The position numbers were made by a program, and so were the translations under genes. The notes under the pieces were generated by a model, which did no database searches, had not been told where the DNA came from, and worked only from the letters and a program-made list of their open reading frames with translations. A stretch of DNA of 19,494 bases, taken from the IMG/VR virus record IMGVR_UViG_2534681658_000009; one strand, given 5' to 3'. Position 1 is the stretch's first letter. Each line of letters starts with the position of its first letter. Positions 2,430 to 19,494 of this stretch are shown piece after piece. Origin of the DNA: a virus. Taxonomy: Duplodnaviria; Heunggongvirae; Uroviricota; Caudoviricetes.

Positions 2430-3309
2430 TCTCCCGCATATTGCCAGCATGGCCTTTAATGAGCCGCTGATGCTTGAACCCGCCTATGCGCGGGTTTTCT
2501 TTTGTGCGCTTGCAGGCCAGCTTGGGATCAGCCGCCTGACGGATGCGGTGTCCGGTGACAGCCTGACTGCCCAGGAGGCACTCGCGACGCTGGCGTTATC
2601 CGGTGATGATGACGGACCACGACAGGCCCGCAGTTATCAGGTCATGAACGGCATCGCCGTGCTGCCGGTGTCCGGCACGCTGGTCAGCCGGACGCGGGCG
2701 CTGCAGCCGTACTCGGGGATGACCGGTTACAACGGCATTATCGCCCGTCTGCAACAGGCTGCCAGCGACCCGATGGTGGACGGCATTCTGCTCGATATGG
2801 ACACGCCAGGCGGAATGGTGGCGGGGGCATTTGACTGCGCTGACATCATCGCCCGTGTGCGTGACATAAAACCGGTATGGGCGCTGGCCAACGACATGAA
2901 CTGCAGTGCAGGTCAGCTGCTTGCCAGTGCCGCCTCCCGGCGTCTGGTCACGCAGACCGCCCGGACAGGCTCCATCGGCGTCATGATGGCTCACAGTAAT
3001 TACGGTGCTGCCCTGGAGAAACAGGGTGTGGAAATCACGCTGATTTACAGCGGCAGCCATAAGGTGGATGGCAATCCCTACAGCCATCTTCCGGATGACG
3101 TCCGGGAGACACTGCAGTCCCGGATGGACGCAACCCGCCAGATGTTTGCGCAGAAGGTGTCGGCATATACCGGCCTGTCTGTGCAGGCTGTGCTGGATAC
3201 CGAGGCTGCAGTGTACAGCGGTCAGGAGGCCATTGATGCCGGACTGGCTGATGAACTTGTTAACAGCACCGATGCGATCACCGTCATGCGTGATGCACTG
3301 GATGCCTAA
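2410..3309 (+). CDS. C: Capsid assembly protease gpC (S49/ClpP-like), 299 aa; C-terminally truncated relative to the 439-aa lambda gpC because the Nu3-homologous region is in a different frame
   Basis: GTG at 2410 gives [30 protein letters not shown]..., the lambda gpC N-terminus, 20 nt inside the end of B. Frame ends DALDA then TAA at 3307..3309. In lambda the same frame continues through the Nu3 sequence. Confidence 0.85.
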
Positions 3310-3331
3310 ATCCCGTCTCTCAGGAGGGCGA

Positions 3332-3727
3332 ATGACCAAAGAGACTCAATCAACAACTGTTTCAGCCACTGCTTCGCAGACTGACGTTACTGACGTGGTG
3401 CCAGCGACGGAGGGCGAAAACGCCAGCGCGGCGCAGCCGGACGTGAACGCGCAGATCACCGCTGCGGTTGCGGCAGAAAACAGCCGCATTATGGGGATCC
3501 TCAACTGTGAGGAGGCTCACGGACGCGAAGAACAGGCGCGCGTGCTGGCAGAAACCCCCGGTATGACCGTGGAAACGGCCCGCCGCATTCTGGCCGCAGC
3601 ACCACAGAGTGCACAGGCGCGCAGTGACACTGCGCTGGATCGTCTGATGCAGGGGGCACCGGCACCGCTGGCTACAGGTAACCCGGCATCTGATGCCGTT
3701 AACGATTTGCTGAACACACCAGTGTAA
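3332..3727 (+). CDS. nu3: Capsid scaffolding protein Nu3
   Basis: ATG at 3332 preceded by caggaggg (RBS); MTKETQSTTVSATASQTDVTDVVPATEGENASAAQPDVNAQITAAVAAENSRIMGILNCEEAHGREEQARVLAETPGMTVETARRILAAAPQSAQARSDTALDRLMQGAPAPLATGNPASDAVNDLLNTPV matches lambda Nu3. It is in frame 2 while the C N-terminal part is in frame 1. Confidence 0.9.
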   Translation: MTKETQSTTVSATASQTDVTDVVPATEGENASAAQPDVNAQITAAVAAENSRIMGILNCEEAHGREEQARVLAETPGMTVETARRILAAAPQSAQARSDTALDRLMQGAPAPLATGNPASDAVNDLLNTPV

Positions 3728-3736
3728 GGGATGTTT

Positions 3737-4069
3737 ATGACGAGCAAAGAAACCTTTACCCATTACCAGCCGCTGGGCAACAGTGACCCGGCTCATACCG
3801 CAACCGCGCCAGGCGGATTGAGTGCGAAAGCGCCTGCAATGACCCCGCTGATGCTGGACACCTCCACCCGTAAGCTGGTTGCGTGGGATGGCACCACCGA
3901 CGGTGCTGCCGTTGGCATTCTTGCTGTTGCTGCTGACCAGACCAGCACCACGCTGACGTTCTACAAGTCCGGCACGTTCCGTTATGAGGATGTGCTCTGG
4001 CCGGAGGCTGCCAGCGACGAGACGAAAAAACGGACCGCGTTTGCCGGAACGGCAATCAGCATCGTTTAA
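3737..4069 (+). CDS. D: Capsid decoration protein gpD
   Basis: 110-aa product [43 protein letters not shown]... matches lambda gpD; same length as lambda D (333 nt). The track ORF starts two codons upstream at 3731. Confidence 0.95.
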
Positions 4070-17614: not shown

Positions 17615-17641
17615 TTAGCCAGGTAACACAGTGTTATGACA

Positions 17642-17668
17642 GCCCGCCGGTTCAGGCGGGCTTTTTTG
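17642..17668 (+). terminator. Rho-independent terminator downstream of lom
   Basis: gcccgcc-ggttcag-gcgggc stem-loop followed by tttttt. Confidence 0.7.
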
Positions 17669-17678
17669 TGGGGTGAAT

Positions 17679-19494
17679 ATGGCAGTAAAGATTTCAGGTG
17701 TACTGAAAGACGGTGCAGGTAAACCGGTACAGAACTGTACAATCCAGCTGAAAGCAAAACGTAACAGCACCACGGTGGTGGCGAACACGGTGGCCTCAGA
17801 AAATCCGGATGAAGCCGGGCGTTACAGCATGGACGTTGAGTACGGTCAGTACAGCGTTATTCTGTTGGTGGAAGGCTTCCCGCCATCGCATGCCGGGACC
17901 ATCACCGTGTATGAAGACTCACAACCGGGTACGCTGAATGATTTTCTCGGTGCCATGACGGAGGATGATGTCCGTCCGGAGGCACTGCGCCGCTTTGAAC
18001 TGATGGTGGAAGAGGTGGCGCGTAACGCGTCCGCGGTGGCACAGAACACGGCAGCCGCGAAGAAGTCAGCCAGCGATGCCGGCACATCAGCCCGTGAGGC
18101 GGCAACCCATGCGACTGATGCTACAGGCTCAGCACGGCAGCCAGCACTCAGCCGGCAGGCCGCGCGTCGGCTCAGTCAGCTCTTCCAGCGCAGGAACGGC
18201 ATCAACAAAGGCCATGAAGCATCAAAAGTGCTGCGCTGCAGAGTCCTCAAAAAGCGCGGCAGCTACCAGTGCCGTGCGGCGAAAACGTCAGAAACGAATG
18301 CGGCAGCGTCACAAAATCGCAGCCACTTCTGCATCCGCCGCGACCACGAAGCGTCAGAAGCGCCACCTCAGCCCGGGATGCGGCGGCCTCAAAAGAGGCA
18401 GCGAAATCATCAGAAACGAACGCATCATCAAGCGCCAGTAGTGCCGCTTCCTCGGCAACGGCGGCAGGCAATTCCGCGAAGGCGGCAAAAACGTCGAGAC
18501 AACGCCAGGTCTTCTGAAACGGCAGCGGGACAGAGCGCCTCAGCTGCGGCAGGCTCAAAAACAGCGGCTGCGTCGTCTGCCAGTGCCGCATCAACAAGTG
18601 CCGGGCAGGCCTCAGCCAGTGCCACCGCTGCCGGAAAGTCGGCAGAAAGTGCCGCATCGTCTGCTTCAACAGCCACAACGAAGGCTGGCGAAGCCACTGA
18701 ACAGGCCAGCGCAGCAGCGAGGTCAGCTTCCGCAGCGAAGACATCCGAAACGAACGCGAAAGCGTCGGAAACCCGTGCAGAATCCTCAAAAACGGCTGCC
18801 GCATCGTCAGCCAGTTCGGCGGCGTCATCGGCATCATCGGCGTCTGCTTCAAAAGATGAGGCGACCATACAGGCGTCAGCAGCGAAGGGCAGCGCCACGA
18901 CGGCATCCACGAAGGCGACAGAGGCTGCTGGTAGTGCGACGGCAGCAGCTCAGAGCAAAAGTACGGCGGAATCTGCAGCAACGCGCGCTGAGACAGCGGC
19001 AAAACGGGCAGAGGATATTGCATCCGCCGTGGCGCTTGAGGATGCGAGCACGACGAAAAAGGGGATAGTACAGCTCAGTAGTGCGACTAACAGCACGTCT
19101 GAAACGCTGGCGGCAACGCCAAAGGCAGTAAAATCAGCCTATGACAATGCAGAGAAACGTCTGCAGAAAGACCAGAACGGCGCTGATATACCCGATAAGG
19201 GACGCTTCCTGAACAACATTAACGCGGTCAGTAAAACAGACTTTGCTGATAAGCGTGGTATGCGTTATGTGCGGGTTAACGCTCCTGCAGGTGCAACATC
19301 TGGAAAATATTACCCTGTTGTTGTTATGCGTTCTGCTGGCTCAGTAAGCGAACTGGCATCAAGGGTCATTATCACCACGGCAACGCGAACCGCAGGCGAT
19401 CCGATGAATAACTGCGAGTTTAACGGATTTGTTATGCCTGGTGGCTGGACTGACAGGGGGCGTTATGCTTATGGAATGTTCTGGCAATATCAAA
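17679..19494 (+). CDS. stf: Side tail fibre protein Stf, N-terminal 605 codons (3' end outside the window); an internal stretch of about 18110..18520 is frame-scrambled
   Basis: ATG 17679 gives MAVKISGVLKDGAGKPVQNCTIQLKAKRNSTTVVANTVASENPDEAGRYSMDVEYGQYSVILLVEGFPPSHAGTITVYEDSQPGTLNDFL..., matching the lambda Stf N-terminus. Frame 0 stays open to the window end, which is why the ORF is missing from the stop-delimited track. Downstream Ala/Ser/Thr-rich repeats and the KGIVQLSSATNSTSETLAATPKAVK motif are in frame. Confidence 0.8.
   Translation, partial: MAVKISGVLKDGAGKPVQNCTIQLKAKRNSTTVVANTVASENPDEAGRYSMDVEYGQYSVILLVEGFPPSHAGTITVYEDSQPGTLNDFLGAMTEDDVRPEALRRFELMVEEVARNASAVAQNTAAAKKSASDAGTSAREAATHATDATGSARQPALSRQAARRLSQLFQRRNGINKGHEASKVLRCRVLKKRGSYQCRAAKTSETNAAASQNRSHFCIRRDHEASEAPPQPGMRRPQKRQRNHQKRTHHQAPVVPLPRQRRQAIPRRRQKRRDNARSSETAAGQSASAAAGSKTAAASSASAASTSAGQASASATAAGKSAESAASSASTATTKAGEATEQASAAARSASAAKTSETNAKASETRAESSKTAAASSASSAASSASSASASKDEATIQASAAKGSATTASTKATEAAGSATAAAQSKSTAESAATRAETAAKRAEDIASAVALEDASTTKKGIVQLSSATNSTSETLAATPKAVKSAYDNAEKRLQKDQNGADIPDKGRFLNNINAVSKTDFADKRGMRYVRVNAPAGATSGKYYPVVVMRSAGSVSELASRVIITTATRTAGDPMNNCEFNGFVMPGGWTDRGRYAYGMFWQYQ
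18050..18960 (+). repeat. Low-complexity Ala/Ser/Thr-rich coding repeats of the Stf shaft
   Basis: Reiterated GCN/TCN/ACN codon runs encoding variants of SAAASSA / AAKTSETNA; they give stop-free ORFs in all frames on both strands. Confidence 0.7.

Follow-up and report, generated by a model that had tools for sequence, protein, structure and literature searches.

Deletion-only frame disruptions in the tail-tip and fibre genes of a lambda-like Escherichia coli prophage contig most probably stem from a mixed-template consensus

Lambda-like phages and prophages, including PhiR34_1, Kati, mEp332, ev099, the TUM11353 and MS15047 prophages and lambda itself, have their genes in the same order between A and stf, and all of them carry intact copies of C, L, K, I, J and stf. 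E. coli also commonly harbours defective lambdoid prophages. The cryptic K-12 prophages Rac, Qin, DLP12 and e14, in which some lom-like or tail-fibre genes are kept and others are non-functional, are characterised by large deletions, IS insertions and rearrangements that recur in different strains and assemblies. Broken genes can also have a technical origin, as collapsed-repeat or mixed-haplotype consensus errors occur in draft assemblies, for which read depth and allele mixtures are the usual direct proof.

The window, which is the whole stretch of 19,494 nucleotides analysed here, is an entire contig in the E. coli 2860050 draft assembly (Table 1), and contains a lambda-like late operon bounded by the 3' portion of A and the 5' portion of stf. 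The genes are collinear with the lambda-like late (morphogenesis) operon (A-W-B-C/Nu3-D-E-FI-FII-Z-U-V-G-T-H-M-L-K-I-J-lom-stf), the Pfam families of the called genes agree with lambda-like phages, and annotated relatives are 96–98% identical in DNA across 99–100% of the window (97–98% for PhiR34_1, TUM11353 and MS15047). The heptamer GGGAAAG is present at the end of G, which we take to be the site of the natural G-T programmed -1 frameshift established in lambda biology. Rfam and tRNA scans of the window gave no matches. According to a paper on sibling strains, in which 2860050 is not named, genomes of the same accession series are from ETEC isolates from Bangladesh sequenced at GSCID/IGS; literature searches on the accession, assembly and strain number of 2860050 found nothing relevant.

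Table 1. Genes, lesion patches and other features of the window (basis given where reported)
Feature	Positions	Strand	Basis or remark
Whole contig AQDL01000023.1, draft assembly GCA_000354995.2, E. coli 2860050	1..19494	+	exact gene match
Head and tail-shaft genes, A' through M	1..11434	+	without indels apart from C
A'	1-628	+	
W	625-831	+	
B	828-2429	+	
C/Nu3	2410-3727	+	
C/Nu3 lesion, 2 bases lost (after 3305 and 3306)	3305..3307	+	alignment to relatives
D	3737-4069	+	
E	4125-5150	+	
FI	5192-5587	+	
FII	5599-5952	+	
Z	5964-6542	+	
U	6539-6934	+	
V	6942-7682	+	
G	7698-8120	+	
GGGAAAG slippery heptamer, intact, no lesion	8096..8102	+	within G/T overlap
T	8102-8536	+	
H	8529-11108	+	
Start of module common to lambdoid phages with unrelated heads and tail shafts	10970..11434	+	HSP limits, annotations
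M	11105-11434	+	
L	11434-12106	+	
L lesion patch, 25 bases lost	11594..11972	+	best-relative alignment
K	12112-12852	+	
K/I lesion patch, 8 bases lost	12615..13075	+	
I	12849-13392	+	
J	13453-16944	+	
J lesion patch, 6 bases lost, net in frame	14750..15110	+	
lom, intact, 199 aa	17015..17614	+	
stf 5' part	17679-19494 (contig end)	+	
stf lesion patch, 15 bases lost, net in frame	18136..18500	+	

When indels were counted per gene against the best relative of each gene, 56 bases were missing from the window alone and no gene had an added base. The losses fall in C, L, K/I, J and stf, while A (3' part), W, B, D, E, FI, FII, Z, U, V, G, T, H, M and lom have no indel at all, and the first-pass annotation was thus right that disruptions are confined to host-recognition genes plus C and that lom and the genes from A to M except C are intact. 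At the C/Nu3 site, GC[A/G]C[G]TAAATC in relatives corresponds to GCCTAAATC in the window, a C having lost both of its neighbours, and this lesion disrupts gene C at codon 300 as well as Nu3. Gene L terminates at codon 65. J had been described as disrupted in its 5' part; it is damaged, but its 5' 37% is an open reading frame of 450 aa (13453-14805), the garbled patch of ~360 nt lies in the centre, and the 3' 53% (15091-16944) is back in frame after six losses. Similarly, the reported disruption of stf proved to be an internal frameshift that garbles ~125 aa, and the frame is stop-free from the gene start to the contig end because the number of losses is a multiple of 3. With one metric applied to all loci, 32 private deletions and no insertion were counted in the window, against a maximum of 16 deletions among 206 related loci, 100 of which have none; this deletion pattern far exceeds chance. 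Several other candidates were rejected as lesions: an apparent 26th loss in L at 12105, where TAAA is shortened to TAA at the stop codon, is a natural length variant shared by other loci such as L283 (100% identical there), an extra T at 13402 is also a natural length variant, and paired insertions and deletions at 5221/5226, 7819/7824, 12277/12279 and 13207-13215 are seen with some references only and were read as alignment renderings of substitutions.

Other isolates with identical lesions, which the first-pass annotation had proposed to look for as support for real decay, did not turn up among 5,426 complete E. coli genomes. There, the L patch matched at 95.5% at best and the stf patch at 96.5%, and by our arithmetic gap columns make up nearly all of this shortfall (~25 in 571 nt for L and 15 in 441 nt for stf). 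The 450-aa J product was found in only one contig of the whole gene index. An exact lesion-spanning 41-mer had no match in IMG/VR and the GTDB representative genomes, and all that follows from this is that the lesions are not widely distributed.

The lost bases lie predominantly at sites that vary between relatives. In a panel of 86 loci, 50/58 lost bases are polymorphic, compared with 22% of retained sites (Fisher p = 4e-25), and the count rises to 55/58 when ambiguity in gap placement is allowed; a run-aware count leaves 3/58 monomorphic, and 35/58 are at codon position 3. A comparison with three references likewise gave 36/63 gapped columns polymorphic, against 3.9% of the remaining columns, and 13 of the 15 stf losses are at sites where haplotypes L001/L002 differ from L003. 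Errors thus concentrate where copies differ, as mixed templates would have it. Homopolymer-length errors of the pyrosequencing, semiconductor or nanopore type were considered and rejected, as 36/55 deleted bases are outside any homopolymer run (background 56%) and there are no insertions.

The window could also be rebuilt from pairs of real haplotypes, which were aligned, stripped of mismatched columns and compared with the window by edit distance. The C patch is reproduced exactly (edit distance 0) by GCG and ACA; the triplet at this site in IMG/VR is ACG in 112 cases, GCG in 6 and ACA in 1, and the ACA variant required for the C lesion is rare (1/120). An edit distance of 0 was also obtained for J at 15000-15140, where L003 and L005 differ at five positions, precisely those lost from the window at 15026-15110. 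The pair model lowered the distance from 7 to 1 in L at 11760-11900 and from 17 to 4 at 11570-11700, and the densest stretch of L, GGCA-TCCGCCAC-CTGACGG, equals L002 aligned with L085/L086 minus the mismatched columns. Moreover, the distance fell from 9 to 2 in stf at 18110-18250 and from 5 to 2 at 18250-18380, with a modest gain in K/I (5 to 3). Residual edits under this simple rule were 4 for L1, 2 for stf1 and 3 for K/I. Two prophage contigs of a single real genome (IMG taxon 2541047928; L079 and L278) lowered the L patch from 18 to 7. The isolated losses at 12615 and 14750 were improved by no haplotype pair tried, and when applied to whole clusters, the rule performed no better than the best single haplotype for K/I (14 vs 17) or J (8 vs 10); the pair model works only on sub-patches because retained substitutions and mosaicism dominate longer spans. 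A near-identical complete genome was sought for the true haplotype pair, but the best head region among complete genomes is 99.1% identical, too distant for the true two haplotypes to be taken from there.

These results bear on random sequencing or base-calling error at locally low coverage or quality with no second template, an explanation that we consider unlikely. It would account for the ~360–460 bp lesion patches, a plausible read or fragment length, for the deletion-only spectrum in one draft assembly and for the few losses at panel-monomorphic sites. Random errors, however, would strike polymorphic sites at the background rate instead of at the excess found in both comparisons, and simulations with equal numbers of random deletions reached the real value of the pair fit in 0/60 runs for each of six patches. 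The losses also lack a homopolymer link, and such error leaves unexplained why they are confined to a module common to other prophages. The first-pass annotation was therefore right to lean towards an artefact, but "uneven sequence quality" as the cause does not fit the polymorphic sites of the losses or their reproduction by haplotype pairs.

The lesions are unique to this contig and coincide with polymorphic sites; haplotype pairs reproduce them, and their genes show no other defect. The frame disruptions are very probably a consensus-calling artefact of one draft assembly, in which templates, most likely from co-resident prophages, were mixed. Reads, or clusters of reads assembled beforehand, from at least two diverged lambdoid tail-tip modules (M/L-K-I-J-lom-stf) would have been merged into a single contig. 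The templates would most likely be co-resident prophages of E. coli 2860050 with differing head genes, and we infer that the second one resides within the same genome. In four patches the consensus would have kept the bases backed by both templates and dropped every disagreeing column, leaving runs of single-base deletions; a tie or sub-majority column might have been resolved to a gap, or flow signals might have been averaged. The small stretch in C would have been hit in the same way, and for the head and tail-shaft genes the second template would have been absent. A counterpoint is that templates ~8% apart over the whole module should yield hundreds of losses; far fewer are found, and therefore only limited patches would have been mixed, which needs an assembler-specific explanation. 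The window resembles usual collapsed-repeat errors in that the contig is made up of nothing but a repeated mobile-element module, that errors fall on between-copy differences and that they are absent from other assemblies. Such errors are found only where a second similar copy exists, a copy that in the window is a presumed one, and the window differs from them in that its errors are deletions only, confined to ~400-bp patches, where chimeric base calls over the full shared module would be usual.

The location of the damage agrees with the distribution of this module. Phages mEp460_ev081, cdtI and vB_EcoS-813R8, with HK97-like or mEp460-like heads, share the window's DNA from the H end or the M/L boundary onward, up to and including J, lom and stf, whereas their head and tail-shaft DNA is unrelated to that of the window. 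Homology begins at 10970 for mEp460_ev081 and the cdtI phage and at 11414 for vB_EcoS-813R8, with 91–92% identity downstream and none upstream except ~66% across 6291-7519. The first tail lesion (11594) is just downstream of these onsets, and the C lesion is outside the module. Damage would begin after M because phages with unrelated heads share the window's DNA only from that point, and would be limited to host-recognition genes because lambdoid prophages share that module at an identity of at least 90%; as judged from these sequence comparisons, the restriction to host-recognition genes apparently mirrors the shared module, not selection on function. In addition, the L-patch alleles of these three phages are those that the second template needs, and phages of this type are candidates for it in 2860050.

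E. coli genomes with the L segment carry a median of 2 copies and up to 11, and several lambdoid tail-tip modules per genome are thus the rule. This speaks against a second template from a mixed culture, contamination or stripped ambiguity codes in place of a co-resident prophage. All mixed-template sequence evidence fits such an origin equally well, but a contaminating E. coli should disturb many other loci, and a lambda-like phage in it would extend the disturbance to the head genes, where only one 2-base lesion is found; we regard this origin as quite improbable.

Real decay is a still less credible explanation. A defective or domesticated prophage, in which frameshifts accumulate in the tail-tip and fibre genes plus C while the head, tail tube and lom are kept under selection, would explain why lesions are restricted to particular genes and why lom and the head genes are intact. 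However, restoring the lost bases yields full-length C, L, K, I and J without internal stops, with amino acid identities of 439/440, 229/233, 245/248, 183/183 and 1145/1166, respectively, and the refilled proteins are 98–100% identical to intact relatives. No nonsense mutation, IS or larger deletion accompanies the lesions in the affected genes, and a spectrum of deletions only, found in no other assembly, is not the mixed and reproducible one that decay would leave. The 25 independent frameshifts in 380 nt of L without substitution decay are unlike pseudogene ageing, and we know of no mutational process that deletes bases at between-haplotype polymorphic sites, where the losses coincide so strongly (p ~4e-25) and are reproduced by removing mismatches. 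Unlike Rac, Qin, DLP12 and e14, lambdoid as they are, the window has single-base losses only, in one contig, and is fully repaired on refilling. It is almost certain that the tail-tip and fibre genes were not broken by real decay, and the decaying or domesticated prophage offered by the first-pass annotation finds no support. It is scarcely credible that the deletions are real and arose in vivo, through recombination between co-resident prophages, a ~400-bp heteroduplex and aberrant repair excising the mismatched bases, to leave a tail-tip-defective prophage; if true, this would be an undescribed process of mismatch-provoked single-base deletion.

With the mixed-template consensus as the probable cause, the biology of this element would be ordinary, namely that of an apparently intact lambda-like prophage of which a single draft assembly of the 2013 era gives a false picture. 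Fragments generated by the artefact have been deposited as proteins, for example EMV95997.1, a "phage tail family protein" of E. coli 2860050, and they would lead predictors of prophage completeness or host range to score the element as defective. Among the open reading frames, L fragments of 64 aa and 54 aa and spurious minus-strand frames over stf are of the same kind. The case of the window also provides a read-free test for distinguishing such an artefact from pseudogene decay, the signs being indels in one direction, their position on the polymorphic sites of relatives, their reproduction by removing haplotype mismatches and the repair of genes on refilling. Moreover, an apparent functional pattern, here that "only host-recognition genes decay", can mirror which mosaic module repeats within a genome.

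The window covers the late region of a lambda-like prophage and is cut off inside terminase gene A at one end and inside stf at the other; the gene order is A (3' part), W, B, C/Nu3, D, E, FI, FII, Z, U, V, G, T, H, M, L, K, I, J, lom and stf (5' part). Four Escherichia phages (PhiR34_1, Kati, mEp332 and ev099) match it at 96-98% identity over 99-100% of its length, as do prophages carried by thousands of complete E. coli genomes, and the element is an ordinary lambda-like prophage member. By exact protein match, it makes up the entire contig AQDL01000023.1 of draft assembly GCA_000354995.2, which a deposited protein name assigns to Escherichia coli 2860050; sibling strains that share its accession series are Bangladeshi ETEC isolates whose genomes were sequenced at GSCID/IGS, and we infer that 2860050 comes from the same project. 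The contig starts inside A at position 1, ends inside stf at 19494 and holds prophage late genes and nothing else; contigs bounded by repeats typically look like this in short-read drafts, and the layout fits a genome with more than one similar prophage.

Alignment to three annotated relatives, followed for each gene by alignment to its best counterpart among about 86 related loci, shows that the window lacks bases at a few places (see table), and no extra base was found in any gene against these best relatives. Genes A, W, B, D, E, FI, FII, Z, U, V, G, T, H, M and lom have 0 indels, in agreement with the first-pass annotation that all genes from A to M other than C are full-length and that lom is spared. 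Its list of disrupted genes (L, K, I, J, stf and C) also stands; the damage it placed in the 5' part of J is central, the first 450 codons being open and followed by a garbled patch of ~360 nt, after which frame is regained for the 3' 53%, and stf has ~125 residues out of frame with no stop as far as the contig end. Scored with one common metric, the window carries 32 private deletions and 0 private insertions, while among 206 related loci the deletion maximum is 16 and 100 loci have none. The most private small indels among these loci are in IMG/VR contigs 2585427742_000001 (L138; 16 deletions, 28 insertions) and 2724678986_000004 (L119; 6 deletions, 15 insertions), which may be truly divergent or have assembly problems of their own. 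The four tail patches are alike in length (~360-460 bp), which hints at a single read or fragment per patch, and losses in multiples of three (J patch, 6; stf patch, 15; gene K, 3) are within chance by a rough estimate.

Lesions and selected genes of the prophage late region
Feature	Position	Observation
C lesion	after 3305 and 3306	2 bases lost
G	7698-8120	
T	8102-8536	
H, tape measure	8529-11108	intact, 859 aa
L lesion patch	11594-11972	25 bases lost
K/I lesion patch	12615-13075	8 bases lost
J lesion patch	14750-15110	6 bases lost
stf lesion patch	18136-18500	15 bases lost

Several irregularities are natural. The L stop (12102-12106) reads TAA instead of TAAA, an apparent loss at 12105 that recurs in related loci L026, L215, L283 and L086, and the extra T at 13402 in the I-J spacer is a length variant, present against some relatives only. 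Within I, ~200 bp (12946-13147) have no megablast-level alignment to PhiR34_1 or the TUM11353 prophage and match the MS15047 prophage and L076-type loci, this being a natural mosaic junction; the annotated I start also varies among relatives (13380 vs 13320, locus coordinates). The heptamer GGGAAAG of the natural G-T programmed -1 frameshift, at 8096-8102, is present and intact, a genuine frame change and no lesion; a second GGGAAAG at 12200, inside K, is probably a chance match. In a cluster of 7,781 members, this contig is the sole recorded source of the exact H sequence, which may reflect ordinary SNP variation or a chimeric consensus built from two alleles.

In pairwise alignments, the base absent from the window is very often one where the references differ among themselves. 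Among three references, 36 of the 63 gapped columns are polymorphic, vs 3.9% of all other columns; in 86 loci, this holds for 50/58 lost bases vs 22% of retained sites (Fisher p = 4e-25), rising to 55/58 once gap-placement ambiguity is allowed. Third codon positions account for 35/58 losses. This bias is not what random sequencing error or mutational decay predicts; it is what a consensus of two diverged templates predicts when disagreeing columns are dropped.

The densest L lesion stretch illustrates such dropping: the lambda-like allele CCAGTACGCGCCCCACG and the diverged allele of phages mEp460_ev081 and cdtI, GTGCTGCCCGTCCGACA, yield TCCGCCAC when mismatched columns are removed, identical to the window between GGCA and CTGACGG. 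The same treatment was then applied to every pairing of the real haplotypes found among up to 287 loci, and edit distance to the window fell from 2 to 0 in C, 5 to 0 in J 15000-15140 (where the five differences between loci L003 and L005 are exactly the five losses), 7 to 1 in L 11760-11900, 17 to 4 in L 11570-11700, 9 to 2 in stf 18110-18250, 5 to 2 in stf 18250-18380 and 5 to 3 in K/I 12800-12945. Residual edits are left in several patches; whole-cluster pair models gave no gain over single haplotypes for K/I and J, and two isolated losses, at 12615 and 14750, are explained by none of the haplotype pairs. For the L patch, two prophage contigs of one genome (IMG taxon 2541047928) reduced the distance from 18 to 7; therefore, co-resident prophages do differ at lesion sites. 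The C lesion is exactly reproduced by GCG and ACA haplotypes, and is less secure because ACA is rare (1/120) and C lies outside the shared module.

The frame disruptions are almost certainly not real biology, and the sequence evidence makes a mixed-template consensus artefact very probable: the lesions are unique to this contig, consist of deletions alone, lie on polymorphic sites, can be reproduced by mismatch dropping between real haplotypes and are the sole defects. The second template would be a co-resident prophage, each ~360-460 bp patch may mark where a small number of foreign reads or read clusters entered the multiple alignment of the contig, and the consensus caller may have turned tied or sub-majority columns into gaps or averaged flow signals below its calling threshold. 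The earlier lean to artefact is thereby borne out by lesion uniqueness, polymorphic-site bias and haplotype-pair fit, and uneven quality, its proposed cause, gives way: random low-quality error does not predict losses on polymorphic sites, 0/60 simulations deleting equal numbers of bases at random from the best haplotype matched the real value in each of six patches, and we consider it highly unlikely. Homopolymer-type error fails as well, the lost bases being of all four kinds with no homopolymer association.

Module sharing would explain why host-recognition genes are hit. Phages mEp460_ev081 and cdtI (from 10970 onward) and vB_EcoS-813R8 (from 11414 onward), with unrelated head and tail-shaft genes, share 91-92% DNA identity with the window only over a stretch that starts at the end of H or the M/L boundary and takes in L, K, I, J, lom and stf, and E. 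coli genomes with the L segment carry two copies at the median and eleven at most; therefore, it is for the tail-tip module that the same genome can be expected to supply a second, similar template. Contamination as its source, a variant of the same artefact, seems most improbable. The first tail lesion (11594) falls just inside the module, which is hit in patches and not along its whole extent, and the apparent functional pattern of damage is probably a repeat-structure pattern.

Real decay, the other reading offered earlier, is scarcely credible. It does not predict losses on polymorphic sites, the lesions show no mixed spectrum, and none was found in 5,426 complete E. coli genomes, where the closest matches reach 95.5% (L patch) and 96.5% (stf patch), the shortfall by arithmetic estimate being nearly all gap columns themselves. 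Moreover, a 41-mer spanning a lesion has no exact hit in IMG/VR or in the GTDB representative genomes, and the gene index lists the truncated 450-aa J fragment for a single contig. Restoring lost bases from the nearest relative gives full-length ORFs with no internal stops and high protein identity (C 439/440, L 229/233, K 245/248, I 183/183, J 1145/1166), a pristine state that would not be expected of a prophage whose L had truly gained 25 frameshifts within 380 nt.

In the public contig annotation (11434-19494), L appears as 64 + 54 aa and J as 450, 114 and 592 aa, the garbled stf patch carries spurious minus-strand ORFs, and artefactual pieces such as EMV95997.1 are already in protein databases. 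These findings advise caution in prophage-completeness calls and provide a read-free diagnostic for the mixed-template class of assembly error.
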